Below are positions 2,225-28,588 of a stretch of 29,584 bases of DNA, piece by piece. A program made the translations under genes and the position numbers. The first letter of the stretch is position 1; every line of letters starts with the position of its first letter. The notes under the pieces were generated by a model. The model worked only from the letters and a program-made list of their open reading frames with translations. It did no database searches and was not told the origin of the DNA. Origin of the DNA: a virus (Duplodnaviria > Heunggongvirae > Uroviricota > Caudoviricetes); the IMG/VR virus record IMGVR_UViG_2537561934_000015. One strand, written 5' to 3'.

Positions 2225-3271
2225 TCAGGATGTGGGCTGGGTGTCTAACAGTGCGTAAGGGTTAAAGCGGATCACCTCTTCGCCAAGCCAGTCATTGATG
2301 TGCTTCATGGCCTCCATGACGGGCATCAGCTCGTTAATTGCGTAAACCCGCGCGGCCTTCTCCACATCACCAAACGCACTTTTTTCACCCGGCATCGCCC
2401 CCATCAGTTGCGGCGGAACGCGGTGCGCAGCCAGCACATCATCACGGGATGCCGCCTTAACATTCATGAACTCATCCTTTGCGGTGATCTGCTGGAACGG
2501 CAAAATTTGCACCCCCTCTTTACCCCCGTTAGGCGCATGAATGAGCACGTTTTTAAACGCACCACCACCACGCGCACCCTGTAGCGTTTCTTTCAGGGAG
2601 TCCATGCTTTCGCGGTTTACCTGCGCTGCGCCGATGTAGATGATGCACCCGGCGTGGGATCCGTTGTCGTAATACAGTTTTCTGAACATGTCCGCCGAAT
2701 GAGACAGGCTGGCCGAGAGTAATGCGCCGAGATATTCCGGCATGCCGTAGATTTCCTGGTTAATGTCCGGATTCATCAGGTGGCACACTTTGCCAGGGCG
2801 AAACTGGAACGCGTCCTTGCCATCCTGCACATACCACCATGATTCAAGATCGCTTCCGCGTCGCATGTATTTCGCCAGGGCGTGCCGTAATTTAAGCGGT
2901 TCACCGAGCATATTGCTTCGAAGCTCAAGGAATGCGTTACCGAACACAAACCAGTCCAGCGCCAGCGCCGAGAAATCCTGCCGGGAAAGCAGCGGGTGCG
3001 GAATATAGCAACCGAGCAATACATTGCGCTTAAAGTAAAGCGCAGACTGATGCCAGGACGTTTGCCGGGCAGCTCTTGCCAGACCGTACCAGTCCACCGG
3101 GGTTTCATACCACCGCCCGTTATCAGCACAGTACATATTGTCCAGCAGGTCATGCCCGGTCAGGCGATAAGGACCATCAAATGTGAATGCACTGAGCGAT
3201 GATTCTTTCCTGAGCGCATCAGCGAGATCAATGCGTGAACTCATGCGCACTTTTTTATTTTTTCTGCTCAT
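2225..3271 (-). CDS. Q: Portal protein (P2 gpQ-like)
   Basis: 348-aa ORF on the minus strand, directly downstream of the terminase gene as in P2. Length and position fit gpQ (about 344 aa). Confidence 0.85.
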   Translation of the reverse strand: MSRKNKKVRMSSRIDLADALRKESSLSAFTFDGPYRLTGHDLLDNMYCADNGRWYETPVDWYGLARAARQTSWHQSALYFKRNVLLGCYIPHPLLSRQDFSALALDWFVFGNAFLELRSNMLGEPLKLRHALAKYMRRGSDLESWWYVQDGKDAFQFRPGKVCHLMNPDINQEIYGMPEYLGALLSASLSHSADMFRKLYYDNGSHAGCIIYIGAAQVNRESMDSLKETLQGARGGGAFKNVLIHAPNGGKEGVQILPFQQITAKDEFMNVKAASRDDVLAAHRVPPQLMGAMPGEKSAFGDVEKAARVYAINELMPVMEAMKHINDWLGEEVIRFNPYALLDTQPTS

Positions 3272-17374: not shown

Positions 17375-17425
17375 TCGATTTTGGCACGCATGGCATGATT
17401 GGCGCTTTTAAACAGGAGATCCAGA

Positions 17426-18016
17426 GTGCTGATTGGCTATGTAAGGGTATCAACAAATGACCAGAATACAGACCTGCAACGAAACGCTCTTGTTTGTGCA
17501 GGATGTGAACAAATATTTGAAGATAAATTAAGCGGGACAAAGACAGACCGACCGGGATTAAAACGCGCTTTAAAGCGCCTTCAACAAGGTGACACGCTGG
17601 TTGTCTGGAAACTGGATCGCCTCGGGCGAAGCATGAAACATCTGATTTCTCTCGTCGGGGAACTACGGGAGCGAGGGATTAATTTTCGCAGTCTGACCGA
17701 CAGCATAGATACATCTTCTCCAATGGGGCGTTTTTTCTTCCACGTGATGGGTGCCCTGGCTGAAATGGAACGTGAATTAATTGTAGAGCGTACACTGGCC
17801 GGTCTGGCAGCAGCACGCGCACAAGGACGCACAGGCGGACGTCGCCCGAAGCTGACAAAAGAACAGAATGAGCAAATAGCAAGGCTGATTAAAAACGGGC
17901 ACGACAGAAAACAACTGGCAATAATTTACGGCATTGGTACATCGACGATTTATCGTTACCACCCCGCAGGAGAATCAAGCGGAACAATTGAGAAGAGTAA
18001 ACAAAATAACCGCTAA
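17426..18016 (+). CDS. Serine DNA invertase, Gin/Pin/Cin/Hin family
   Basis: From GTG 17426 (AGGAG 7 nt upstream) the protein reads (M)LIGYVRVSTNDQNTDLQRNAL...VVWKLDRLGRSMKHL..., near-identical to the recalled Gin/Pin N-terminus with the catalytic Ser in VRVST. The six-frame track start at 17399 is upstream of the likely start. Confidence 0.9.
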   Translation: MLIGYVRVSTNDQNTDLQRNALVCAGCEQIFEDKLSGTKTDRPGLKRALKRLQQGDTLVVWKLDRLGRSMKHLISLVGELRERGINFRSLTDSIDTSSPMGRFFFHVMGALAEMERELIVERTLAGLAAARAQGRTGGRRPKLTKEQNEQIARLIKNGHDRKQLAIIYGIGTSTIYRYHPAGESSGTIEKSKQNNR

Positions 18017-18044: not shown

Positions 18045-18539
18045 TCAGAACAGCCCTTTAACTGAACTGGCCGCGCTGTTAAGAGATGATGTCACTTTAT
18101 CTTTGAAGCCGGACAGCATATCGCTGAACGATGAGGATTGCAGACGCTCCCGCAAATCCTCATCACAGCGTTCAAGGGTCAGTGAAAACTCTATCTTTTT
18201 CGCCTTGCCGTAGCGATCAAACTCAGAACGGGTCGTATTCGTTTCAGTCAGTACATACATGCCGTAAATCTGCCCGACGCCATCAATCAGAGGCCAGGGG
18301 CGTCCTGTATATGCCTGCGTGGTCAGCAGCGACAGCGACACTTCGCCACCTGTAATTTCAGGATAAAGCACGCCTGAAAGCACGATGCGATCATCACCTG
18401 CACCGATATACTGCCAGCTTGCTGAACGGTTAACGCGTTCATTTTTCACATGCCGCCAGCTTTTGTTTTGCTGTAACTGCTGATGCGGCAATGTGCGCAG
18501 CTCAAAAACAAACATGCCGTAGATCATCATCATGGCCAT
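18045..18539 (-). CDS. U: Tail protein (P2 gpU-like)
   Basis: 164-aa minus-strand ORF immediately downstream of T in the reading direction. gpU size is about 159 aa. Confidence 0.8.
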   Translation of the reverse strand: MAMMMIYGMFVFELRTLPHQQLQQNKSWRHVKNERVNRSASWQYIGAGDDRIVLSGVLYPEITGGEVSLSLLTTQAYTGRPWPLIDGVGQIYGMYVLTETNTTRSEFDRYGKAKKIEFSLTLERCDEDLRERLQSSSFSDMLSGFKDKVTSSLNSAASSVKGLF

Positions 18540-18545
18540 GACTCC

Positions 18546-21272
18546 TCAGTCTTTATCGTAAAAACTGCCACGCCCGGCACGGGCGCGCCGTTCCATTTCT
18601 GCCCTGACCATTTCGCCAACCAGTTTCGCCAGTTCGCGGGGATTCTGTGTAACAACGTTATGCAGATGAACATGAATTTCACCGCCAAATCCGGAGGCAA
18701 CAGGCTCCCGGTTACGGGAAGTTGCAGGAACTGATGCCACTGGCGATCGTATAGCCTCCGCCACCGGGCGGGAGCTGGCCGCAACAACAGGGACCAGCGC
18801 CGGAGGCAGCGGAGCCGGAACCACGGGTGTGATAGTAATTGCGGGGGCAGGCTTACTGACCTGCGCAATCTTCCGCTCCTGCCACTCCCCACGAACAGCA
18901 AGTGCGCGGGGCAGGTTCTTAAAGACAATATCGCCGGGGCCAATGAGTTTTTTCGTCTCATCAACCAGCTTACCTGTGTTATCAGCAATTTTGCTGAGTC
19001 TGCGTAGCGTACCGGTATTGTTGTCTGTGAGCGGTTTGTTGTCTCTGGGTTTATCGCCTTTTTTGTCGTCGACCTTATCTGACGGGGCCGGGCCGGGAGT
19101 CCATGGTTTCTGAACCATTTTCTTGAGAACCGGATCCCATTCCCACAATACAGGAGCCTTTGAAGCGTTCTCTATTTTCTTTCTCGCCCGCTCCGCTTCA
19201 TCCGGAAGCACTCCGAGCTTTTCAAGTATCCACGCCAGTGAATCCATCAATGCTTTTGTTGGCGTCAGGACAAGCTCTATCGCTCCACCGAGTACCCTGC
19301 CGAATACCTCGCCAGCACTGGTACATTTATCCAGCGTTTCCTTGCTGGACTCCATCGGTGACAGCAGCGATTTAAACCAGTTAAAGACCTGAATAATCCC
19401 ATCGCGCACGACATCAAAAACTGGACCGAACCGTTCAAAGGTTTCGCGCAACGGAGCCAGCCGTTCCATAATCCCACTGAACACCCCTGCATAAAACGCC
19501 TTGATGGGTTCCCAGTATTTCCAGATGAGAACCGCCGCAGCCACAAACGCAGCAGCAATCAATCCGACCGGGCTGAGCAGCGCCCCGATAGCGCCCCCCA
19601 GTAACGAAACGGAACCCGTCACCATTCCCCATAGTGCTGGCAGGAGCCTGACAGCATTCATTGATCCGGTCAGGAGGGAAAAGCCAAGACGCAGTTTTGC
19701 CAGCGGGCCAGCAAGCACACCAATAGCCAGCGACAACGAGCCAACCGTTGCAGTCATTGCCAGCAACGCACCGCCTGCTATCAGTAGCTGGCGCGTCAGT
19801 GTCGGATGGGCCTGCGCCAGCGCCGTCACCTTCGATACCACCCGCGTGAGCCACTGCGTGACAGAACGCAGCGGACCGTCAATCAGATCTGCAATGCGGA
19901 TGCGCAACCCTTCCCATGCACTGCCGAGTGATTTCAGATCGCCGTCAAGGTTGTTGGCCATAACCTTTGCCGTGCGTTCAGCCTCACCGCGTGCGCCTTC
20001 AAGTTCTTTTCTCAGTTTAGGTAAGGATCCGTCACCTGCCGCATCAACGAGGGCCATAAATGATGTGAAAGCCTCTTCTCCGGCAATGTCCTTAAAGAAC
20101 GATACCCGATCAACTTCTCCGTATTTGCGGGTGGCTTTATAAAGGTCAGTCAGCAGATCTTCCATCGGGCGCATTTTGCCCCCGGCATCCGAGACAGACA
20201 CGCCCAGCTCTTTCAGCGCCTCTGCTGCCGCCTTTGGCGGTGATGCCAGACGAGCCAGGCTGGCACGCATTGCCGTCCCGGCATCACTTCCCCTGATACC
20301 CATATTCGCCAGCACGCCCGCCATCGCTGCGGCCTGCTCCAGCGATATTCCCAGCTTACCCGCCACCGGACCTGCATATTTCATGGTTTCGCCCAGTGCG
20401 CGAAGGTCAGTGTTGGTACGGGTAAACGCTGCAGTGAGTGTGTCACCGACCCGGTCCATCTGGTCAGCAGAAAGGCCGAACTGCGTCAGGATATTTGAGC
20501 CAATATCCGCCGTCTCGCCGAGATCCATACCGCCAGCCGTTGCCATGCTCAACACGCCGGGAAGCGCAGCCTGAATGGCCTGCGGTGTGAAGCCAGCCAT
20601 TGCAAGAAATGCCTGCCCACTGGCGGCATCGCCTGCGGTGAACTGCGTTTCAGAGCCAAGTTTTAACGCCTGCTCACGCAGCGCCTTAAACTGCGGGCTG
20701 TTCTGGTCGATTCGCGTCAGCGCCTGAACGCGGGACATCTCTTTCCCGAACCCGATCGCAGGCTGCAAAAAACGCCCGGCAGCATAGCCGCCCGCCGCTG
20801 CCGCACCTGTTGCCAGTGCACCACCTGTTTTCAGTTTTCCCGCGGTTTCCTGCGCGCGCGAATACCGCTCACGCGCCCGCGTTACACGCGCAAGCGCCTG
20901 CCGTTCGCGTTCAAGCTGGTTGTTGTACTGTTCGGTGCGTCTGATGGCCTGCTGGATGGTGTTATCACTGCCTGTCAGGGAAATGCCGTGGCGTTTCAGC
21001 TCTCCGCCAAGCTCCCGCATTTTCTGAATCTCCCGTGTGCGCGATTCATTCAGGCGTTCAAGCCGGGTGCTTAACTGCTGCATCAGCTTTTGTTGTTTTT
21101 CGCTGAGCACTGTACCCGTGCGTTGTAACTGATTAAGGGCGTTAAGCTGGCGTCGCGCTTTCAATATGCCAGCATCCGCTTTACTGACAGCGTCACGGGC
21201 GCGCTCAAATGAACGCGCCTGACGCTCGAGATTTTTTGATCGCCCCCTGCGTTCGCTGGATGGAGTCACCAA
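18546..21272 (-). CDS. T: Tail tape measure protein (P2 gpT-like)
   Basis: 908-aa ORF with coiled-coil-rich N-terminal part (QLERERQALARV...), Ala/Gly-rich central segments and hydrophobic stretches, positioned after E/E'. Confidence 0.9.
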   Translation of the reverse strand: MVTPSSERRGRSKNLERQARSFERARDAVSKADAGILKARRQLNALNQLQRTGTVLSEKQQKLMQQLSTRLERLNESRTREIQKMRELGGELKRHGISLTGSDNTIQQAIRRTEQYNNQLERERQALARVTRARERYSRAQETAGKLKTGGALATGAAAAGGYAAGRFLQPAIGFGKEMSRVQALTRIDQNSPQFKALREQALKLGSETQFTAGDAASGQAFLAMAGFTPQAIQAALPGVLSMATAGGMDLGETADIGSNILTQFGLSADQMDRVGDTLTAAFTRTNTDLRALGETMKYAGPVAGKLGISLEQAAAMAGVLANMGIRGSDAGTAMRASLARLASPPKAAAEALKELGVSVSDAGGKMRPMEDLLTDLYKATRKYGEVDRVSFFKDIAGEEAFTSFMALVDAAGDGSLPKLRKELEGARGEAERTAKVMANNLDGDLKSLGSAWEGLRIRIADLIDGPLRSVTQWLTRVVSKVTALAQAHPTLTRQLLIAGGALLAMTATVGSLSLAIGVLAGPLAKLRLGFSLLTGSMNAVRLLPALWGMVTGSVSLLGGAIGALLSPVGLIAAAFVAAAVLIWKYWEPIKAFYAGVFSGIMERLAPLRETFERFGPVFDVVRDGIIQVFNWFKSLLSPMESSKETLDKCTSAGEVFGRVLGGAIELVLTPTKALMDSLAWILEKLGVLPDEAERARKKIENASKAPVLWEWDPVLKKMVQKPWTPGPAPSDKVDDKKGDKPRDNKPLTDNNTGTLRRLSKIADNTGKLVDETKKLIGPGDIVFKNLPRALAVRGEWQERKIAQVSKPAPAITITPVVPAPLPPALVPVVAASSRPVAEAIRSPVASVPATSRNREPVASGFGGEIHVHLHNVVTQNPRELAKLVGEMVRAEMERRARAGRGSFYDKD

Positions 21273-21346
21273 ACTGCCCCATCAGGCGGCGGGCGTTTTC
21301 GGCAGGCCGGGTCAGCCTGTCAACGGCGCTGAAAGCGACCCGGATA

Positions 21347-21885
21347 TCAAGAGTCTTCATTGTCTGCATTCCCGCTGCGAAGTGCCGCCCGCTCACGCCA
21401 GCTAACCACTTCGCCGGGCGTCATCATGAAGATTTCGGCGGGCGACCAGTTAAAAATGGCGGCAATATCCGCCACCAGATCTTCGATGTGCTCAAAGCAC
21501 ACCAGGGTGATTACGCTGCCGTCTCCTGCACGCTCTTCGCGCCAGAGTCTGGCTCGCTCATAAAATTTACAGCCACAGCGCACAACTGAATAAAATCGCG
21601 TGACGACATTTTTTTAATCATCACTTCATCCAGTCGTGGCGAGGTCACGCGAGGCAACAGCGTGAACATGGTATCCGCTTTCAGATTCAGCACATCAGAC
21701 AGCGACAGACCACGCAGGGATCCAGCCTGCTCAATAGCCCCGGTGATCTCCACATACGTGATTTTTTCGCCACCACGCTCAATTGGTCGGGTCAGTTTTA
21801 CGCCACGTTCGACAGCCATATCCTCACCTGCCGTCACATCATCCGCCACGGTGTTATTCCGGGTTTCAGTATTGATGTTTTTCAT
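21347..21885 (-). CDS. Tail assembly chaperone frameshift product (gpE+E'-like), made by programmed -1 frameshift near 21562-21568
   Basis: The minus strand reads GTA AAT TTT ATG in the E frame, giving the X_XXY_YYZ heptamer A_AAT_TTT. The -1 frame is open from 21613 to 21347 and overlaps the last 17 codons of E. Confidence 0.6.
21511..21885 (-). CDS. E: Tail assembly chaperone (P2 gpE-like)
   Basis: 124-aa ORF with AAGGAG ribosome-binding site, between the tube gene and T. An overlapping -1 frame continues to 21347. Confidence 0.75.
   Translation of the reverse strand: MKNINTETRNNTVADDVTAGEDMAVERGVKLTRPIERGGEKITYVEITGAIEQAGSLRGLSLSDVLNLKADTMFTLLPRVTSPRLDEVMIKKMSSRDFIQLCAVAVNFMSEPDSGAKSVQETAA
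21562..21568 (-). promoter_or_regulatory. Candidate -1 ribosomal slippery heptamer AAATTTT
   Basis: Only canonical slippery heptamer in phase with E inside the E / -1 frame overlap. An A7 run at 21609-21615 is an alternative shift site. Confidence 0.5.
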
Positions 21886-21940
21886 CAGTTGTCTCCTTTT
21901 CAGTCAGAGGCGACGCACCGCGCCGCCTGCATATTACTTA

Positions 21941-22453
21941 TCAGCCAAGCCCGAGTGCGGAACGAATGCGGTCAGGCACAATGTCCTTGCCGTCCTTCCG
22001 GTAGATGTGGTTCAACAGGTCGATTTCCCACAGCGGGCGATCGTTAACGCTCAGCTTGTAGTAGGTGTTTTTGACAGCGTAAGTGTGTGATGTGGCTTCG
22101 CCCTGCTTGGCTTCCCCCATATCAATTTCCGTCACACGCCCGCGCATCTCGATTTCATACAGATCGCTTTCTGCATCGGTGTAGTATTCACCCGCAAAAC
22201 GCAGTAGCGTGTCGTCAATCGTGCCGCCATACTTCAGGAACAGCTCACGAACTGCGCCCCCCATGACAAAGCTCGCATCAAGCGCGGAGTCGTCCAGACC
22301 GAGATCAATACTTACCGCACCCATCATGCCACCACCCCGGTAGCTGTCGGTTTTGCGCGTCAGCTTAGGCAGAGTGACGGACGTCACCTTACCCACTTCG
22401 TTTTCACCATCCACAAACAGCGTAAAAAAGCGAAGATGTTTTGGTACAGCCAT
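21941..22453 (-). CDS. FII: Tail tube protein (P2 gpFII-like)
   Basis: 170-aa ORF, gpFII size (172 aa), directly after the sheath gene. Confidence 0.85.
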   Translation of the reverse strand: MAVPKHLRFFTLFVDGENEVGKVTSVTLPKLTRKTDSYRGGGMMGAVSIDLGLDDSALDASFVMGGAVRELFLKYGGTIDDTLLRFAGEYYTDAESDLYEIEMRGRVTEIDMGEAKQGEATSHTYAVKNTYYKLSVNDRPLWEIDLLNHIYRKDGKDIVPDRIRSALGLG

Positions 22454-23637
22454 CAGGCACCTCCCAGCACCGCAAATGCGGGACCAAAGAATTCATCGGT
22501 AAACGTCTGGTAAAGCTCCATGTCTTCCAGTGGCGGAACGGGCGTATATTTGTAGCGAATACGCACACGCCCCTGACGTAAATCCGTGGTGCCGTTATCC
22601 ACCACGTCATACCAGCACGACGCCCCAATCAGTTTCCCGGCTGTCACCAGCGAATCCAGTTTTGCCCTGACGGCACTGATAACATCTTTCACGTTCGCAG
22701 GCGTCAGTGGACTGTCGATGGTTTCAAACTGCGCTTCCGCAATTGAATCAGCCAGCACCTGTGCGGTTCGGGTATACACCTCAAAGATGTAGGCGTTCGT
22801 TTCCGGTGTGCGGTTGCCCCAGAAGCGGAACCCATTGCGACGAATAATGGTCGTGATTTCTTTGTTATTGAGGCTGTTGGCATCACTGTCTTCGGCCTGC
22901 AACGACCAGAACACATGCCTGGACATTCCCAGCACATTTTTAACCGGAACGTTGGACAGCGATTTGTGCCAGCCCTGCTCATGGTCAATGTACGCACGAA
23001 GGCCGCACGCATAAGCAGGCGCGGGGAACGTTTCGTTTTCGCCACTTTTCGGGTTGTAGGCGATGAAGTCCGGCCATAAGAGCATCACTTCACGTTCGTT
23101 GAATTTCTGGCGGTAGGTAATCGCCTCAGCCATCGTGTTACTGCCGTGACATGAGGCATACACAAACGCGCGCAGCTTACCCGCAATCACGCACAGGGAT
23201 TTTGTCACCGCCTCCGTGTCCAGCTCCGGCGCGGCCAGAATACGCGGACGGTATCCGATGCTTTCATCCTGCTCTGCAACAAGCAGCGCATACATCCCCG
23301 TATAGCTGCCGTCAGATTCAGAACCACCGATAACCAGTTGATCCTGCGTCTTACCGCCTTCTTCTTTGTGTTCAGCCACGCGAACGACGATCACCTTTGT
23401 GCTCACCTGGTCTGCGATGGCCTTAAGCGCACGATAAAGCGTCCCCGTTGTCCCGCATTTTCCCAGCACGTCATTGACGCGGGTCAGCAGTGTGGGCTTG
23501 TTCAGCGGGAACAGCTCCGCATCCGCATCATCCGCCGTTGCCACGATACCGATAACGCTGGAATCAACATCATTAATCGCTGTTACCAGGTCGGTACTTT
23601 CCGTGACACGGGCACCATGAAAACGAGTTTCACTCAT
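22453..23637 (-). CDS. FI: Contractile tail sheath protein (P2 gpFI-like)
   Basis: 394-aa ORF. Motifs FPLNKP, KLRAF, YRQ.F..RE, GWHK.LSNV, RR.GFRFWGNRT, YTRTAQV and YKYTPVPPLE match recalled gpFI. Confidence 0.9.
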   Translation of the reverse strand: MSETRFHGARVTESTDLVTAINDVDSSVIGIVATADDADAELFPLNKPTLLTRVNDVLGKCGTTGTLYRALKAIADQVSTKVIVVRVAEHKEEGGKTQDQLVIGGSESDGSYTGMYALLVAEQDESIGYRPRILAAPELDTEAVTKSLCVIAGKLRAFVYASCHGSNTMAEAITYRQKFNEREVMLLWPDFIAYNPKSGENETFPAPAYACGLRAYIDHEQGWHKSLSNVPVKNVLGMSRHVFWSLQAEDSDANSLNNKEITTIIRRNGFRFWGNRTPETNAYIFEVYTRTAQVLADSIAEAQFETIDSPLTPANVKDVISAVRAKLDSLVTAGKLIGASCWYDVVDNGTTDLRQGRVRIRYKYTPVPPLEDMELYQTFTDEFFGPAFAVLGGA

Positions 23638-23793: not shown

Positions 23794-24903
23794 ATGACCG
23801 ACACCACCATGCAATTGCTCAGTCAGAGCACAGACCCCGTGAAAATGCCGGATTTTGATATTCTCGCGGAGGGGGAAACGCTGTCCGGTCGTGGCAGAGC
23901 GCCTGATGAGTCTGTCACTGACCGACAACCGGGATTTGAAGCGGTACCAGCTCACCATCACGCTGGATGATGCGGATGGTCAGTTGCAGCTACCGCCACG
24001 GGGCGCGCGCCTGACGGTTCTCATTGGCTGGAAAGGAGAACCGCTGACAGAAAAAGGCACTTACATTGTTGATGAAATCGCTCACGAAGGACCGCCGGAC
24101 AGGCTGACGGTTTCAGCCAGAAGCGCAGATTTTCGGGATGAATTTAACGTTAAACGTGAGGTGTCCTGGCATGATGTGACCGTTGAGCGCGTGGTATCCG
24201 CCATCGCTCATCGGTATGGTCTGAAACCGCAAATCAGCGAAATGCTGATGGATATCGAAATCGACCACGCCGACCAGACCGAAGAAAGCGACATGTCCTT
24301 CCTTACGCGCATGGCGGAAATGCTGGGCGCAATCACTACGGTAAAAAGCGGTAATCTGTTATTCATCATGCCAGGTGGTGGCGTGAACGCACTGGGCCAG
24401 CCGTTGCCATCGTTCGCCATCACACGCAGCAGCGGCGATCGCCATCAGTTCCGCATTGCTGACCGCGAAGCGTATACGGGGGTACGCGCTTACTGGCTTG
24501 ATCTTAATTACGGGAAAAGAAAAAAGTCAGCGTGAAACGCCGCAAACCGCCAAAACCCAAAAAGGAGAAAAGCAGCAGCCGTGAAGGTGATTATATGGAA
24601 GGCGCAGAAGGCAATGTGTTTGTGTTACGCAAGACTTATCAGAACGAGCAGGCAGCAAGACGCGCAGCGGCGGCAAAATGGCAGCAGCTACAACGCGGAG
24701 CCGCATCATTCTCCATCACGCTGGCGCGTGGACACGCAGAACTCTATCCCGAAATGCATGGCACGGTGAAAGGCTTCAAAAGTGACATCGACAATCAGGA
24801 CTGGATTATTGCAAAAGCTGAGCACACCATTGATAACAGCGGCTTTACCACGCAGCTTGAGCTTGAGGCAAAAATCCCGGAATGGATAGCAGAAACAGAG
24901 TGA
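23794..24903 (+). pseudogene. D: Tail/baseplate hub gene D (P2 gpD-like), split over three frame segments
   Basis: Frame 1 from ATG 23794 (ribosome-binding site AGGGAGGGA) reads MTDTTMQLLSQSTDPVKMPDFDILAEGETLSGR and then goes out of frame. Frame 2 (open 23843-24535) carries the central part VAERLMSLSLTDNRD...YWLDLNYGKRKK. Frame 1 again (open 24508-24903) carries the C-terminus ...EGNVFVLRKTYQ...WQQLQRGAASFS...GFKSDIDNQDWII...GFTTQLELE. The frame changes lie near 23880-23895 and 24510-24530. Confidence 0.75.
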
Positions 24904-25023
24904 GCAACTTAGACATATTAGCTCAAACTTAAACTGGCAAGTTTACAGTATAGAATTAAACATAAACGACGGTCCGCTCCGTGTCAGAAGCGGACTTTGT
25001 CATCCCTATGTAAGGTTGATTGC

Positions 25024-26046
25024 TTAATACGCATTTAATTTAAATTTGTATTTGCCTTCTATGTAATGGATAAATTCAATTATGCTTTTTTCTATCGCAT
25101 CTAATATATGAATATATCCATCCCGATTTAAGGTCCTATCCAACTCAAAGTGATGAACTATCCCATGTCTATATTGTATGATTTCAGAAATTCGATTCTC
25201 AAGAAAATCAACTGATTTTCCAATTCTTTTTTTCTTATAAAGAATCGCTCTCACATCTATATCCAGCCACTCTTTATATGCTTTGTTTAGGTGGGTTAAG
25301 TTTTGAAAAGTGTAATTTCTTGCAATAACACTTTCTATTGAAATATTTCCTTTCTCTATCTCAAGCAGAATATCAAAATCAACTTTTTGCTTATACGATG
25401 TTCTTTTTGCTATTGCGAAAGGATCGTACTTTATAAGTATTTGAAAAGCTCTAGAGAAAAAGTATTCAAACATAGCAACCGCAAAAGGTACTAATCCATT
25501 ATATATAACTCTACTGGGATCCATACATTGCATGTAATCAAAGTATTCGGATAAGCCGCCATCTTCCGGTAGGTTTAATTTAATAGAAGGTTCAGGTAAG
25601 GCATGTTTAACAGCGGAAATCTCATGATGGACATGATTAAATATTGAAGAAATGCCACGACTGATCGGACTACTAGAATCCTTCCATAGAGGAGCGTACC
25701 TATTTTTCCCATAATCACCTATAAGTGTTCCACCAAAAAGACTCCTTGCGCCTTTTAGAACATCATTAAGCATTTTTACATCATGCCAACTAGCGCTATA
25801 TAAATTACGCACATGCAATGCCCATTTATTACCAGATATGTGTAATTCGTCATTTGAAACAGGATATATATCAGCCGAAACTCCATCTGTAGATTTGAAG
25901 TCCGTATCATCAAACCAAGAGTAATTCAACGTTCCTTGGGGCCATTCCCACAAATGTTTACACCTTTTAAAACCTAAATTTTCAAGGTAATTTTTAAGTT
26001 CGTTTCTAGTTGCTTTTTTAGGGTACAGCGTTATATCTCTTCCCAT
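25024..26046 (-). CDS. Hypothetical 340-aa protein, AT-rich cargo gene inserted between D and ogr; C-terminal HEPN-like R-x4-H motif
   Basis: Long ORF with AGGTGA ribosome-binding site, visibly AT-rich against GC-rich structural genes, and on the opposite strand to its neighbours. C-terminal region ...ENRISEIIQYRHGIVHHFELD... contains R-x4-H. Confidence 0.7.
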   Translation of the reverse strand: MGRDITLYPKKATRNELKNYLENLGFKRCKHLWEWPQGTLNYSWFDDTDFKSTDGVSADIYPVSNDELHISGNKWALHVRNLYSASWHDVKMLNDVLKGARSLFGGTLIGDYGKNRYAPLWKDSSSPISRGISSIFNHVHHEISAVKHALPEPSIKLNLPEDGGLSEYFDYMQCMDPSRVIYNGLVPFAVAMFEYFFSRAFQILIKYDPFAIAKRTSYKQKVDFDILLEIEKGNISIESVIARNYTFQNLTHLNKAYKEWLDIDVRAILYKKKRIGKSVDFLENRISEIIQYRHGIVHHFELDRTLNRDGYIHILDAIEKSIIEFIHYIEGKYKFKLNAY

Positions 26047-26237
26047 GCTTTATTCACCTGATATACAATATTTTAAATTTTAACTATTATGAACGTATGA
26101 ATTTTCACATTGGATGTATGGAAGTTCAACAACTATTGAAAGTTCAATTTTCACTCTTCGCACAGAGCGAGCTGTTAGTTGGAATTAGGGATCGTACAAT
26201 CTAGAATAGCGGCAACACCACGTTAAGGGAGGTCGCT

Positions 26238-26498
26238 ATGTTCCGTTGTCCACTTTGTGGCGCATCTGCCCGTATCCGCACTAGTCGTCCGGAAAATGAT
26301 TCAAACACTGTGCGGCAAAAGTATTACCAATGTAACAACCTAGAATGCGGCGTATGCTTCTCAACACTGGAAGCTTTCCATAAATTCACATCGAAACACG
26401 CCTCCGGCGCTCACTCTTCAGAAGGTATCCCGTGGCATGAACTGCCAGCTTCACACAAAGGAAACAATCAGATGAGTTTGCCCTTACCTCAAAATTAA
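26238..26498 (+). CDS. ogr: Ogr/Delta-type zinc-finger late transcription activator
   Basis: MFRCPLCGASARIRTSR...YYQCNNLECGVCF matches recalled P2 Ogr (MFHCPLC...ARTSR...YHQCQNVNCSATF). Ribosome-binding site AAGGGAGG. Confidence 0.85.
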   Translation: MFRCPLCGASARIRTSRPENDSNTVRQKYYQCNNLECGVCFSTLEAFHKFTSKHASGAHSSEGIPWHELPASHKGNNQMSLPLPQN

Positions 26499-26588
26499 CA
26501 GGCAGAATTGCCGGAGTAACAAAAAAGAGATAGATTACGCGCGGGTGCCTTTCGGCTGATGGTCGGAGGGAATACCTGAAGGCCAGAT

Positions 26589-26822
26589 GTGGAAAGGCCC
26601 CGGAAAACATTTCTGTTTAACCGAGGCCCTAACCGCATTACCTTGACAAGTGAAAGGTTAGCGCCTCTCCGGAAAAGGAGCAAGTGCTATGTCGCAAAAA
26701 TCGCTTACGGCTATCACGTTCTGCGTGACGGTAATCCTCATCATCTGGATGTTGCACGGTTCGCTGTGCGAAATACGGATGAGTTTCTGGGGAGCGGAGT
26801 TTGCGGCGTTCTTACAGTGTAA
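26589..26822 (+). CDS. mok-like overlapping leader ORF of the hok-type locus
   Basis: 77-aa ORF in a different frame, starting upstream of the hok-like ORF and overlapping almost all of it, as in hok/mok loci. Confidence 0.4.
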   Translation: MERPRKTFLFNRGPNRITLTSERLAPLRKRSKCYVAKIAYGYHVLRDGNPHHLDVARFAVRNTDEFLGSGVCGVLTV

Positions 26823-26829
26823 GCAGTAA
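26689..26829 (+). CDS. Hok/Gef-family type I toxin (46 aa)
   Basis: ATG 26689 with AAAGGAG at 26674-26680. Product MSQKSLTAITFCVTVILIIWMLHGSLCEIRMSFWGAEFAAFLQCKQ has the Hok TM helix plus SLCEIR and AAF motifs (compare Hok ...[24 protein letters not shown]). Confidence 0.7.
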   Translation: MSQKSLTAITFCVTVILIIWMLHGSLCEIRMSFWGAEFAAFLQCKQ

Positions 26830-26860: not shown

Positions 26861-27090
26861 AATCGGTTGCCAGGGTAAGGTCGATAAGGCACCCTATCTC
26901 ACGGCTCTAAATGCAAAAATTCCATGAAACTGTGGGATTTTTGCATCACTACTGATACAGATCTGCCCTTCTATATGTCTCACTCTATACCAGCTAATCA
27001 ATTGACACTTATCAATAAAAAAAAATCTGATAAAATCAAAATGTTTTGTAACAAATATCAACTCGTATTGATCCAAAGGAGGCGGATTAC

Positions 27091-27423
27091 ATGGCATTAA
27101 TCAAATGTCCTGAATGCCAGAAAGAGGTGAGCGATTCAGCATTGTATTGCCCTGCTTGCGGTAAACAAATAAAAAAACTTAAGCGTTCATTTTTTGGAAA
27201 GCTCATTAAGTGGATATTTATATTATTTAATATTTTTATGATCTATACGCTTTTAGTTGGACTGGGAGGCACTAGTGAAATAATAAATAATGCTACATCC
27301 GATGCCGAAAAAGCCGGTGCAGTTATTGGTACAGGCTTAGGTTTAATTACCATTGGAAGTTTATGGGTTATTGGCGATATCATTATCGGAATTTTAGTAT
27401 TTCTTACTAAACCAAAAGGATAA
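27091..27423 (+). CDS. Zinc-ribbon membrane protein (110 aa)
   Basis: CPEC...CPAC zinc ribbon at the N-terminus, then two hydrophobic helices. Ribosome-binding site AGGAGG. AT-rich. Confidence 0.6.
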   Translation: MALIKCPECQKEVSDSALYCPACGKQIKKLKRSFFGKLIKWIFILFNIFMIYTLLVGLGGTSEIINNATSDAEKAGAVIGTGLGLITIGSLWVIGDIIIGILVFLTKPKG

Positions 27424-27427
27424 CAAA

Positions 27428-28321
27428 ATGAAAAATATAATTTTTTCTATAGGTGCATCATTTATATCAATTAGTGTACTGCCTGTTCACGCAGCAACTG
27501 AACATAATAACTTCAATGCAGTACTCCAGTGCCGAGCAATAGAAAATAATAAAGACAGACTTTCTTGTTACGATAAGTCAATACAACCGACTCGAACGAA
27601 AGTTGCTGAAAAATTCGAAAGCAGAGATCAATGCCCTGATGAGAAAGATGATGACAGACGTTTATCTTGTTATGATCGTTTTTTTTCTCCAACATTTACT
27701 CCATCTGTAAACTCAAAATCTAAAACGGAAAAGCCAGTAACAACAGAGGCTCAGCAACCAAATCTTTCTGAGATATCTAAATGCCGAGCAGAAAATGATA
27801 AAGAAGCCAGACTAAACTGCTACGATAAACTATTCCCACAGGATAAAGCTGTTCAAGCTGAATCAAAATTAGAGAAAGCCACAGATGTAGGAAAATGGCA
27901 CACATCCATTACTACATCGCCAATTGATGATTCGAAAAATGTAATTTTATCGTTAGAAAGTGATGATTATATCAGAACTCCATTTGGAGAAGCGGTTACT
28001 CCCACTCTGTTTATAGCTTGCCGAGAAAAGAAAACCGAAGTATTTCTTAGTTGGGATGTATATTTAGGCCTTGAACAAACCAGCATGCTTTATCGTCTTG
28101 ATAAACAGAAAGCAGTTGAGCGAAACTGGCTAGTATCTACAGATACAAAGGCTGTTTTTTATAAAGGTAATGACATTGATTTCATCCGAAAACTAGCCAA
28201 CTCAAACAAAATGTATACAAAAATAACTCCTTATAATGAGAGCCCTGTAAGTGCAACTTTCAATTTAAACGGCCTGTCAAACGCGCTAAAACCACTTCAA
28301 GCTGCTTGTAACTGGAAATAG
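27428..28321 (+). CDS. Secreted repeat protein (297 aa) with signal peptide and three RL(S/N)CYD motifs
   Basis: N-terminal signal peptide MKNIIFSIGASFISISVLPVHA. Repeats DRLSCYDK, RRLSCYDR and ARLNCYDK, followed by a C-terminal domain. Starts 4 nt after the zinc-ribbon gene, so probably co-transcribed. Confidence 0.6.
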   Translation: MKNIIFSIGASFISISVLPVHAATEHNNFNAVLQCRAIENNKDRLSCYDKSIQPTRTKVAEKFESRDQCPDEKDDDRRLSCYDRFFSPTFTPSVNSKSKTEKPVTTEAQQPNLSEISKCRAENDKEARLNCYDKLFPQDKAVQAESKLEKATDVGKWHTSITTSPIDDSKNVILSLESDDYIRTPFGEAVTPTLFIACREKKTEVFLSWDVYLGLEQTSMLYRLDKQKAVERNWLVSTDTKAVFYKGNDIDFIRKLANSNKMYTKITPYNESPVSATFNLNGLSNALKPLQAACNWK

Positions 28322-28330
28322 CATAAATCA

Positions 28331-28392
28331 TGTGGCTTAGCCACAATCACAGATAACACAAAGCCCGTGAAAACGGGCTTTGTGTTATCTGT
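28331..28392. repeat. Two adjacent perfect palindromes/hairpins
   Basis: TGTGGCT-T-AGCCACA at 28331-28345. ACAGATAACACAAAGCCCG-TGAAAA-CGGGCTTTGTGTTATCTGT at 28349-28392 (19-bp arms). No T-run follows. Confidence 0.6.
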
Positions 28393-28588
28393 AACTCGAA
28401 AATGTGGTCACTACGTGGACACGTGCTGATATAAATCCTTTTATATCAATAAATTAAATCATCATTTTTTTCATCAACAAGGATTTTCACGTTTGTGTTA
28501 CCTGTATGAGACGAGAGTTAACCGGACAAGTGTGCCATAATCTCGCGGCCAGGCATACTTGCGAAGATTTCAGGTATAAGGATACGTA

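Follow-up and report, generated by a model that had tools for sequence, protein, structure and literature searches.

A candidate single-gene anti-phage HEPN protein in an exchangeable cassette between D and ogr of a P2-like prophage

The 340-residue protein encoded between genes D and ogr of a P2-like E. coli prophage (P88/Xuanwuvirus-Gemsvirus type) probably provides anti-phage defence by itself, from a single gene that the prophage carries as exchangeable cargo. From its sequence, and by analogy with characterised proteins, we infer a role in defence, most likely through an RNase that phage infection activates and that works by abortive infection. Prophage hotspots are already well known to harbour solo HEPN defence genes.

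In the window (the whole 29,584-nucleotide stretch of viral DNA analysed here), the open reading frame occupies positions 25024–26046 of the minus strand, with an ATG start and a Shine-Dalgarno sequence (AGGTG) nine bases upstream; its product is RefSeq WP_000532200, annotated as ‘hypothetical’. The gene is flanked on the left by D (tail / late control D; 23794–24903, plus strand) and on the right by ogr, encoding the late transcription activator (26238–26498, plus strand), which are the two anchors of the hotspot. Position 26237 is the base preceding the ogr ATG, and the segment 25024–26237 comprises the gene plus a 191-bp divergent intergenic region. A sequence-only reading of this DNA had singled out a 1-kb AT-rich gene lying between D and ogr on the opposite strand, and both the ORF call and a sharp GC trough bear this out (GC content 0.30–0.40 over 24900–26250, vs 0.52–0.56 in D and the tail genes). 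Its premise that ogr ordinarily follows D directly holds for the closest relatives, phages Chuche and P88, where the D–ogr spacing is 42 bp. Between the convergent D and HEPN genes lies a GC-rich hairpin (24972–24995, both strands), terminator-like by consensus match only, with a 9-bp stem containing six GC pairs on the minus strand and a 5-bp version on the plus strand.

The horizontal acquisition proposed for the AT-rich insert is supported by exact boundaries against empty-site relatives. BLAST alignments with Chuche and P88 stop at 24913 and restart at 26202, with a 4-bp overlap, and the cargo cassette (24914–26205; GC ~0.35) amounts to ~1,292 bp of extra sequence, counting one copy of the flanking TAGA. 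A direct repeat, present once in empty sites, borders the insert: the left copy, CAACTTAGA, lies directly 3′ of the D stop codon (24905–24913, plus strand), whilst the right copy, CAATCTAGA (26197–26205, plus strand), reads CAACTTAGA in most other cassettes. The conserved left cassette end (24919–24939, plus strand; consensus TAGCTCAGAC-N5-CTGaCA, degenerate in the HEPN cassette) is an imperfect inverted copy of the conserved right end (26172–26207, plus strand). According to a promoter scan, the latter holds a sigma-70-like ogr promoter, made up of TTGGAA (26179–26184), a 17-nt spacer and TAGAAT (26202–26207); it is kept in all 18 cassette types, and the empty site retains the −10 element only. 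These ends are not known to resemble dif/Xer or Hin/Gin crossover sites.

The region upstream of the HEPN gene is internal to the cassette (26047–26171, minus strand) and contains, besides the Shine-Dalgarno sequence, two TTGAACTT(C/T)CA repeats 18 bp apart and a weak candidate promoter (TTGAAC-17-TGtGAAAAT); a promoter scan found no site over threshold on the HEPN-gene strand of this region, which shows neither conservation between genera nor unusual structure (z −0.85). The suggestion of a divergent promoter region shared with ogr is partly supported: a good promoter-like site faces ogr (26179–26207), but only weak candidates face the HEPN gene.

A survey of the same junction in 79 sister prophage loci found 34 empty and 45 filled, the latter with 18 types of AT-rich cassette that share the insertion site and the ends. 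Their cargo includes bona fide defence genes, such as Shedu SduA (E 1e-208) and a PifA-like gene (E 3e-64), together with PDC-S31/DUF2971, PIN_12, PIN_4, GmrSD+HNH and two radical-SAM genes. An alpha/beta hydrolase and a SEC-C motif protein have no obvious defence role, and in about ten cassette types no defence domain can be recognised in the encoded proteins; since some cassettes are not plainly defensive, guilt by association is imperfect. D–ogr junctions of P88-like prophages are found in ~23% of complete E. coli genomes, and the HEPN gene in 66 of 5,426 E. coli genomes, or ~5% of the sites with this ogr backbone. In six carriers the HEPN cassette is 99.7–100% identical and its flanks 95.6–97.6%, near-identity on backbones that agree at ~96%; this comparison of sequences shows recent transfer of the cassette between phage backbones.

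The position of the gene invites the question of whom it serves. An RNase could aid the P2-like phage in its own life cycle or in counter-defence, rather than protect the lysogen; the RNAs degraded in the lytic phase might, for example, be those of the host or a competitor, of retrons or CRISPR systems, or of satellites. The gene is phage-borne and adjoins the late activator ogr, and an anti-satellite function is conceivable because P2-like phages are parasitised by P4-like satellites. Against this, the gene is oriented opposite to the late genes, with the terminator-like hairpin between it and D; chromosomal islets outside phages and other types of mobile element also contain close homologs; its slot-mates Shedu, PifA-like and GmrSD are classical host-defence genes; and about half of the sister prophages do without any cargo. 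We consider such a phage-serving role quite improbable.

The protein is predicted to have two domains (25024–26046, minus strand), an N-terminal alpha/beta domain and a C-terminal HEPN domain joined by a hinge, in an AlphaFold2 model with a pLDDT of 85. Full-length homologs (340 ± 2 residues) at 64–87% identity are found in several gammaproteobacterial genera, and the two-domain architecture is kept in ~284 representative clusters (50% identity) spread across the Gammaproteobacteria. The N-terminal domain (residues 1–112; 25711–26046, minus strand) has the order beta-alpha-beta-beta-beta-alpha-beta, with G55 and D89 invariant and S86, N94 and G105-G106 almost invariant, and in the full-length alignment across genera it is as conserved as the HEPN domain. 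It is followed by a G-x-N-R-Y loop (residues 113–122) and a long connecting helix (residues 127–149; together 25600–25710, minus strand). The loop is modelled with pLDDT < 50, yet its G113-x-NRY motif is almost invariant. We predict that the N-terminal domain is a sensor or regulatory domain; the loop and helix are possibly a mobile regulatory or substrate-binding element.

Such conservation bears on whether the ORF is real. The frame might be decaying or spurious, within AT-rich junk DNA, and the neighbouring D gene does carry four frameshifting indels in this window, so this prophage copy may itself be decaying. Of the 66 E. coli genomes with the ORF, however, 60 keep it unbroken at 99% identity or more, its homologs in other genera keep their length and their 64–87% identity where the flanking DNA is unalignable, both domains persist across the ~284 clusters, and the structure model is confident. 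On these sequence comparisons a non-functional ORF is effectively refuted.

Profile searches including Pfam, PADLOC, NCBIfam and PHROGs gave no family match for the N-terminal part; for the whole protein NCBIfam returned nothing and PHROGs only matches with E > 0.09, and Foldseek comparisons against PDB and BFVD returned no match with E < 1e-3. Sequence searches of the PDB with both close and diverse family profiles yielded noise only (syntaxin, HP0242). An L-PSP/RidA-like N-terminal domain, as the family name of the C-terminal domain might suggest, was rejected, with no Pfam match and no RidA-like structure among the fold matches, and apparent cases of the N-terminal domain swapped onto other effectors were frameshifted ORFs. 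The sequence-only reading had left the N-terminal two-thirds without a recognisable family. This stands for residues 1 to ~175, about half of the protein, and fails beyond, because the HEPN match begins at residue 181. A literature search by protein accession and family name found no characterisation of the 340-residue family.

The C-terminal domain (residues 177–333; 25048–25518, minus strand) is of the RiboL-PSP-HEPN type. The Pfam model PF18735 (HEPN_RiboL-PSP) matches residues 181–329 with 22.5 bits (E 1.2e-4), below its gathering threshold of 28.4 bits; all 32 of 32 close homologs match it at E up to 0.01 (best 1.5e-8), most homologs have a precomputed match, and one distant member (P0217) scores 32.7 bits, over the threshold. 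The window protein thus falls below the cut-off whilst its wider family reaches it, which places the family at the edge of the Pfam model. The fold in the predicted structure agrees with the profile, the C-terminal domain being an all-alpha, up-down helical bundle with HEPN topology. Conserved residues of the domain are N183, E194, F247-Q248, R293, H294 and H298, the last three belonging to the predicted catalytic motif R293-H294-G-I-V-H298 (Rx4H; 25153–25170, minus strand), assigned from the translation and from its invariance. This is the R-x4-H (YRHGIVHH) that had first drawn attention to the gene, and its presence exceeds chance: among 39 relatives at 20–62% identity, R293 and H298 are invariant and H294 is at least 90% conserved.

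In active HEPN domains the last core helix begins with the motif Rx4-6H, in which a polar residue (N, D or H) follows the arginine (PMC3710099). The window protein has H294 in the polar position, and its motif lies within helix 282–299 of the AlphaFold2 model. E194, in helix 178–207, does not vary even among relatives at 20% identity; it is followed at the fourth position by S198, where the Ex3[KR] pattern often seen in this N-terminal helix has K or R. Profile, predicted fold and invariant Rx4H together support the assignment of the C-terminal domain as HEPN.

The gene stands alone. The cassette contains no partner gene and no antitoxin-like small ORF, and homologs in Shewanella, Aeromonas, Pantoea, Pseudomonas, Halochromatium and one metagenome have no neighbour gene in common. 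One homolog adjoins a SIR2 gene in a lambdoid prophage and another a UvrD-type helicase in an integrase/AlpA/DUF927 island. An RNA antitoxin or leader of the kind found in AbiF-type systems was also sought and rejected, with no Rfam match, repeat RNA, excess structure or cross-genus conservation.

These searches bear on a selfish reading, in which the HEPN RNase is a toxin that penalises cells losing the cassette or prophage and so stabilises the element instead of defending the host. Control would have to come from the N-terminal domain acting in cis, from a small RNA that escaped recognition or from an antitoxin encoded elsewhere. No candidate antitoxin emerged as an adjacent small ORF, a repeat RNA or an Rfam family, the leader is unconserved and the six other contexts offer no common neighbour; moreover, with 34 of the 79 sister loci empty, the slot is readily found without cargo, which argues against strong addiction. 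We regard an addiction module as unlikely, noting that toxin-antitoxin and abortive-infection roles can coexist and are not mutually exclusive.

Full-length conservation at 64–87% identity across genera is unusually strong and is an observation that counts against a role in defence. A sensor that has to keep pace with fast-evolving phage proteins usually varies more. Such conservation would also suit a non-defence accessory gene (moron), or a regulatory RNA-binding or RNA-processing protein for host physiology, in a general accessory-gene hotspot; the alpha/beta hydrolase and SEC-C cassettes in the slot and the housekeeping genes that surround the Shewanella and Aeromonas homologs point the same way. 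Set against these are a patchy distribution linked to mobile elements (66 of 5,426 E. coli genomes), a foreign, AT-rich composition, the invariance of the catalytic Rx4H and the placing of this HEPN subfamily within the Abi2/AbiD/AbiF clade (PMC3710099), and we judge a moron or host-physiology role improbable.

For the preferred reading, abortive infection by an RNase that phages activate, the following mechanism may be outlined. In the lysogen, a promoter inside the cassette would drive transcription of the gene, which is oriented against the late genes D and ogr. By analogy with HEPN biology (PMC3710099; for HepS, PMC13043305), the protein would form a HEPN-mediated dimer or oligomer in which two Rx4H motifs (R293 and H298, with H294 and E194) make up a metal-independent RNase site, presumably held inactive by the obligatory N-terminal alpha/beta domain and the G-x-N-R-Y loop. 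When a heterologous phage infects, the N-terminal domain would detect one of its proteins, or a change that infection brings about in a conserved host component, and this trigger would release the RNase. Cleavage of tRNA, mRNA or rRNA would then stop translation and abort the infection; sister lysogens would thereby be protected, and with them the prophage.

A bolder version of this proposal is tentative and, on balance, doubtful. In it the N-terminal domain would be a new sensor of a conserved host component or small molecule, giving a guard-type trigger and a new solo-HEPN family, a reading that draws on an N-terminal domain conserved like the nuclease, on the invariant D89 and on the G-x-N-R-Y loop. 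Separately, the D–ogr junction would be a dedicated, phage-borne, integron-like cassette-exchange site for defence genes, a reading that draws on the conserved inverted-repeat ends, the flanking direct repeat and the built-in ogr promoter.

Should the protein prove protective against phages, it would add a widely distributed family with a new N-terminal domain to the solo-HEPN defence proteins, and escape mutants could reveal its trigger, as they did for HepS. The slot itself is sharply delimited and has at least 18 cargo types, several without known domains; because the conserved ends ease computational extraction of cassettes, it is a ready source of candidate defence genes, as well as a clean natural case of cassette-level swaps between phage backbones. 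This practical by-product may outweigh the protein itself in usefulness.

Comparison with named defence systems places the protein beside several of them and within none. A search of PADLOC-DB v2, whose systems include ApeA, AbiD/F, PD-T4-5 and PD-T7-3, finds no model for the window protein with the E limit relaxed to 10, and none for 38 distant relatives; over the 39 family members the one match obtained is spurious (E 0.0013). HepS, the ‘HEPN solo’ abortive-infection protein of the Gifsy-1 prophage (PDB 9oik), is inactive by default, is activated by the siphovirus tail-tip protein J and cuts tRNA anticodon loops (PMC13043305). It differs in being ~218 residues long, in lacking the N-terminal alpha/beta domain and in residing in a lambdoid prophage, whereas the present protein has 340 residues and a P2-like host element; PDB searches with close and diverse profiles detected no sequence relationship between the two families.

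RiboL-PSP-HEPN was placed by Anantharaman et al. in 2013 in an Abi2/Swt1 clade with ‘distantly related AbiF and AbiD’ (PMC3710099); the contexts described then, fusion to an endoribonuclease L-PSP domain and a ParB operon, are absent for the window protein. The same label is carried by PD-T4-2_B of PD-T4-2, an experimentally validated E. coli anti-T4 system, which has two genes rather than one. PADLOC, presumed to include a PD-T4-2_B model, gave no match to the window protein, and an hhalign comparison with one HEPN protein that resembles PD-T4-2_B and belongs to a tested defence system gave no signal (probability 1.9%). With no hhalign signal against two sequences of the DefensePredictor supplement, membership of PD-T4-2 or of a DS system is not claimed.

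PD-T4-5, a plasmid-borne AbiF/D relative, and lactococcal AbiD/AbiF (Abi_2) are likewise one-gene HEPN proteins of the same broad clade, carried on mobile elements and with a reported abortive-infection phenotype, but they have a different N-terminal region and no PADLOC match links them to this protein. ApeA and DS-11 follow the same logic, single-protein defence by a variable N-terminal domain and a catalytic HEPN domain; ApeA has a beta-rich and much larger N-terminal domain and DS-11 a nucleotide-binding CBS pair, whereas here it is an alpha/beta sandwich of ~112 residues belonging to no known family and without a sequence match to either. The anti-T4 toxins RnlA and LsoA also combine alpha/beta N-terminal domains with a HEPN RNase, but share no sequence similarity with the window protein and require an antitoxin gene (RnlB/LsoB), which the present locus lacks.

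The slot, finally, can be set beside the known P2 hotspots, old/tin between gpA and the portal gene and Z/fun downstream of gpL; D–ogr is not named as a hotspot in these accounts (PMC9122126, PMC9519451, PMC13586616), as the sequence-only reading had anticipated. All are fixed slots between core genes that hold diverse, AT-rich and quickly exchanged defence cargo. The D–ogr slot differs in lying at the right prophage end of P88-like phages and in the ends of its cassettes, which, unlike those of the known P2 hotspots, are conserved and include a direct repeat and a predicted ogr promoter.

The window comprises the right-hand part of a P2-like prophage; over 24900–26240 it matches 'Escherichia phage 500465-2' (Peduoviridae, Gemsvirus) at 100% identity, the integration site of which adjoins the host flk/fabB region. 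Between D (plus strand, ending at 24903) and ogr (26238–26498, plus strand) lies an open reading frame for a 340-aa protein on the minus strand (26046 to 25024), with an ATG start codon and AGGTG nine bases upstream; its translation includes an RHGIVH motif (25153–25170, minus strand). The sequence-only reading had described an AT-rich gene at this junction, and GC content does fall to 0.30–0.40 over 24900–26250, against 0.52–0.56 in the flanks. This gene, hereafter the HEPN gene, is carried by 66 of 5,426 complete E. coli genomes; among the matches listed, it is chromosomal and located between D and ogr every time.

Several other features of the window were recorded. D (23794–24903) bears four single-base indels relative to the intact D of the Chuche and 500465-2 records, at 23889 (+T), 23933 (−G), 23945 (+T) and 24514 (−A, in an A-run), which break it into three reading-frame pieces, the adjacent cargo gene being intact; either this copy of the prophage is in decay and its tail gene inactive, or these are assembly indel errors. 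D, on the plus strand, diverges from the minus-strand tail sheath, tube, tape-measure and gpU-type genes (18045–23637), which means that the FI-to-U block is inverted with respect to classical P2. This is the Xuanwuvirus/Gemsvirus arrangement, with the cassette slot following a D gene that stands by itself; a gene for a DNA invertase is located at 17399–18016. A lower-GC stretch (600–1800; 0.40–0.48) with small ORFs at 845–1123 (92 aa) and 1190–1477 (95 aa) adjoins the portal gene (2225–3271), where classical P2 has its old/tin hotspot. At the prophage end, just 3′ of ogr, the stretch 26543–26829 contains a hok/mok-type toxin ORF (26689–26829; 46 aa; annotated Hok/Gef or MokW-like) with a sok-like antisense RNA match (Rfam RF01794) that scores 48.3 bits against a gathering score of 59. 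A second AT-rich block outside the prophage (26890–28400; GC 0.31–0.37), adjoining host flk, encodes a zinc-ribbon membrane protein (27091–27423) and a protein annotated as 'type VI secretion system-associated TagO' (27428–28321), and is possibly an islet of its own at the attachment site.

The closest phage relatives (Chuche, P88, P884B11, PhiR44_2 and Shae_phiSM) have D and ogr ~95% identical to those of the window, without the HEPN gene; in Chuche the two are 42 bp apart. Homology to the window stops after 24913 and restarts at 26202 with a 4-bp overlap (TAGA), so the window has an excess of 1,292 bp. At the identical point phage 520873 carries another insert, of 0.9 kb, with a similar right end. 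A survey of cargo at this junction, as proposed in the sequence-only reading, covered 80 IMG/VR loci with nearly identical Ogr, the gap being measured in the 79 having both D and ogr. The site was empty in 34 of the 79 (gap 45 bp as measured) and filled in 45, with inserts of 1.0–3.8 kb that sort into 18 cassette types, every one AT-rich (GC 0.33–0.42); the HEPN cassette was found at five surveyed loci. The cargo comprises Shedu SduA (E 1e-208), a PifA-like protein (E 3e-64), PDC-S31/DUF2971, two radical-SAM enzymes, PIN_12, PIN_4, GmrSD with HNH, a SEC-C-motif protein, an alpha/beta hydrolase, a HetE-N protein with a 932-aa partner, a weak PsyrT-like match and about six domain-less proteins. 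The D–ogr junction is thus a genuine hotspot, rich in defence genes. Cassette ORFs of 229, 274, 386 and 478 aa, a 188 + 134 aa pair, and the 932-aa ORF with its HetE-N partner (L018, L042, L056, L082, L084, L087 and L029) gave no Pfam or PADLOC match; these proteins are further candidate defence genes. An RNase serving the phage and a moron with no part in defence were both weighed as rival readings.

Over the HEPN cassette, the window and six other carriers are 99.7–100% identical, whereas identity is only 95.6–97.6% in the sheath gene, in D and on the ogr side; the cassette has thus been transferred recently between diverged phage backbones, which bears out the proposed horizontal acquisition. 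Of the 5,426 complete E. coli genomes, 1,243 have the ogr backbone; the share of such sites occupied by the HEPN cassette is thus roughly 5%.

All 18 cassette types have conserved ends in common (loci L010–L089; window 24905–24945 and 26172–26207). A direct repeat of ~9 bp, about CAACTTAGA, flanks every insert and is present as a single copy in empty sites. The left-end consensus is TGCATTAGCTCAGAC-N5-CTGaCAcGCTTAC and the right-end consensus CTGtCAGTTGGAGTCTGAGCcAGTACAACTTAGA, the two being imperfect inverted copies with the core TAGCTCAGAC-N5-CTGaCA. These ends may be handles for homologous cassette swapping (the repeat permitting precise deletion), remnants of a site-specific mechanism, or regulatory sites. 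The right end holds a well-formed sigma-70-like candidate ogr promoter (TTGGAG/TTGGAA, 17 nt, TAGAAT; 26179–26207), and ogr is therefore not orphaned by insertion; the empty site keeps the −10 element alone, the −35 element (TTGGAG/TTGGAA) coming from the cassette right end. For the HEPN gene, a promoter scan returned no above-threshold site, so the shared divergent promoter region suggested earlier is supported in part only; inspection by eye revealed a weak extended −10 candidate and two TTGAACTT(C/T)CA repeats upstream. A GC-rich hairpin (24972–24995), located where D and the HEPN gene converge, resembles a terminator for both directions.

Pfam gave one match to the 340-aa protein, HEPN_RiboL-PSP (PF18735; residues 181–329, E 1.2e-4), at 22.5 bits, below the gathering score of 28.4 bits; NCBIfam and PADLOC searches gave no match, and PHROGs noise only. 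A search of a large protein database gave 295 relatives, the best 120 of which are full-length (340 aa, ±2) with 64–87% identity, originate from Pantoea, Proteus, Shewanella, Aeromonas, Pseudomonas, Methylococcaceae, Halochromatium and many metagenomes, and mostly carry a precomputed PF18735 match. PF18735 is matched by all 32 aligned homologs (best E 1.5e-8), and with 32.7 bits the distant relative P0217 passes the gathering threshold. When 1.84 billion cluster representatives were searched exhaustively, only 284 clusters were returned (E up to 1e-3); among the best 150, short fragments aside, the ~340-aa two-domain layout is kept to ~22% identity. In a 39-relative alignment G55, D89, E194, F247, R293 and H298 are invariant, and M1, S86, N94, G105, G106, G113, N183, Q248 and H294 are at least 90% conserved. 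R293-H294-x3-H298 is the HEPN Rx4-6H motif in its canonical form, in which the arginine is followed by a polar residue, as defined by Anantharaman et al. 2013 (PMC3710099), in whose classification 'Ribo L-PSP-HEPN' falls within the Abi2/Swt1 clade, as distant kin of AbiD and AbiF; the R-x4-H motif of the sequence-only reading is thus upheld. That the ORF is non-functional was weighed against this conservation; its RefSeq entry (WP_000532200) reads 'hypothetical protein'.

The AlphaFold2 model built from the alignment is confident (mean pLDDT 85, pTM 0.66) and comprises an N-terminal beta-alpha-beta-beta-beta-alpha-beta domain (residues 1–112), a low-confidence loop (113–122), a long helix (127–149) and a helical C-terminal domain (167–333). 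The C-terminal half is very probably a HEPN domain, predicted to be catalytically competent, and we are highly confident in predicting that the protein is a HEPN RNase. The N-terminal domain lies outside every described family, as the sequence-only reading had it: searches with this domain alone picked up ZipA, KA1 domains, Med18/20 and SirA, and Foldseek the spermine-synthase N-domain and BamC-N, none significantly, and sequence searches of solved structures with the protein family found no related structure. Conservation is equal in the two domains (77% and 72% identity in close homologs; 32% and 33% in distant ones), which a variable hinge (residues 150–176) separates, and a near-invariant G-x-N-R-Y motif sits in the poorly modelled loop. 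Apparent cases of the N-domain joined to a different C-terminus proved to be frameshifted ORFs, hence the pairing is obligate.

The HEPN gene is solitary. No neighbouring gene is common to the homologs across Shewanella, Aeromonas, Pantoea, Pseudomonas, Halochromatium and an unassigned metagenome, and DNA upstream of the start codon is not alignable between genera. Outside E. coli the contexts are mobile or variable: in Pantoea (locus L090, 449–1936) the homolog is beside a SIR2_2 gene in the immunity region of a lambdoid prophage, in Pseudomonas (locus L091, 9121–12167) it is beside genes for a UvrD-helicase and a 276-aa protein in an integrase/AlpA/DUF927 island, the neighbours in both being likely defence genes, and the Shewanella and Aeromonas homologs form small islets amid housekeeping genes. 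A selfish toxin was also weighed as a rival; inside the HEPN cassette we found no plausible antitoxin ORF, tandem-repeat RNA or Rfam family, and leader structure was not above that of shuffled sequence (z = −0.85).

Taken together, a role in anti-phage defence is probable, with single-protein abortive infection the best-supported reading, and the original interpretation appears sound, the observation behind it being real. The analysis itself supplies the fold, motif, solitary state and context; HEPN biology (PMC3710099) and the precedents HepS, PD-T4-5 and DS-11 suggest the remainder. The lysogen would express the protein from its own promoter, and oligomerisation through the HEPN domain would create a composite Rx4H RNase site, presumably held inactive by the N-domain and conserved loop. 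An infection-linked cue would then switch the RNase on, and cleavage of tRNA, mRNA or rRNA would arrest translation. Since N-domain conservation is unusually strong, we speculate that the trigger is a conserved one (a host component or small molecule) rather than a fast-evolving phage protein. The HEPN gene is a good and experimentally tractable candidate.

Among the precedents, HepS is a solo prophage HEPN protein, inactive by default, which is activated by a tail-tip protein and cuts tRNA anticodon loops (PMC13043305); PD-T4-5 is a single-gene AbiF/D relative, and DS-11 a CBS+HEPN protein. A review lists the same Pfam HEPN family for the validated systems PD-T4-2, PD-T4-5, PD-T7-3 and ApeA, and the DefensePredictor tables list it for PD-T4-2_B. 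PADLOC models did not match the protein or its distant relatives, its accession and family name were not found in the literature searched or the DefensePredictor supplements, and no signal came from aligning its profile directly with that of a PD-T4-2_B-like HEPN protein; it is therefore placed in no named system. Papers on the known P2 hotspots (gpA–portal, downstream of gpL (Z/fun), int–att and int–primase) do not name D–ogr, in line with the earlier remark that this position is not usually listed. Single-gene HEPN defences in prophage hotspots are already familiar, and the gene will thus hold little surprise for the specialist; the N-domain is undescribed, and the neatly bounded cassette slot has received too little description. 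We file the 340-aa protein as one that probably works in the manner of a solo HEPN abortive-infection protein.
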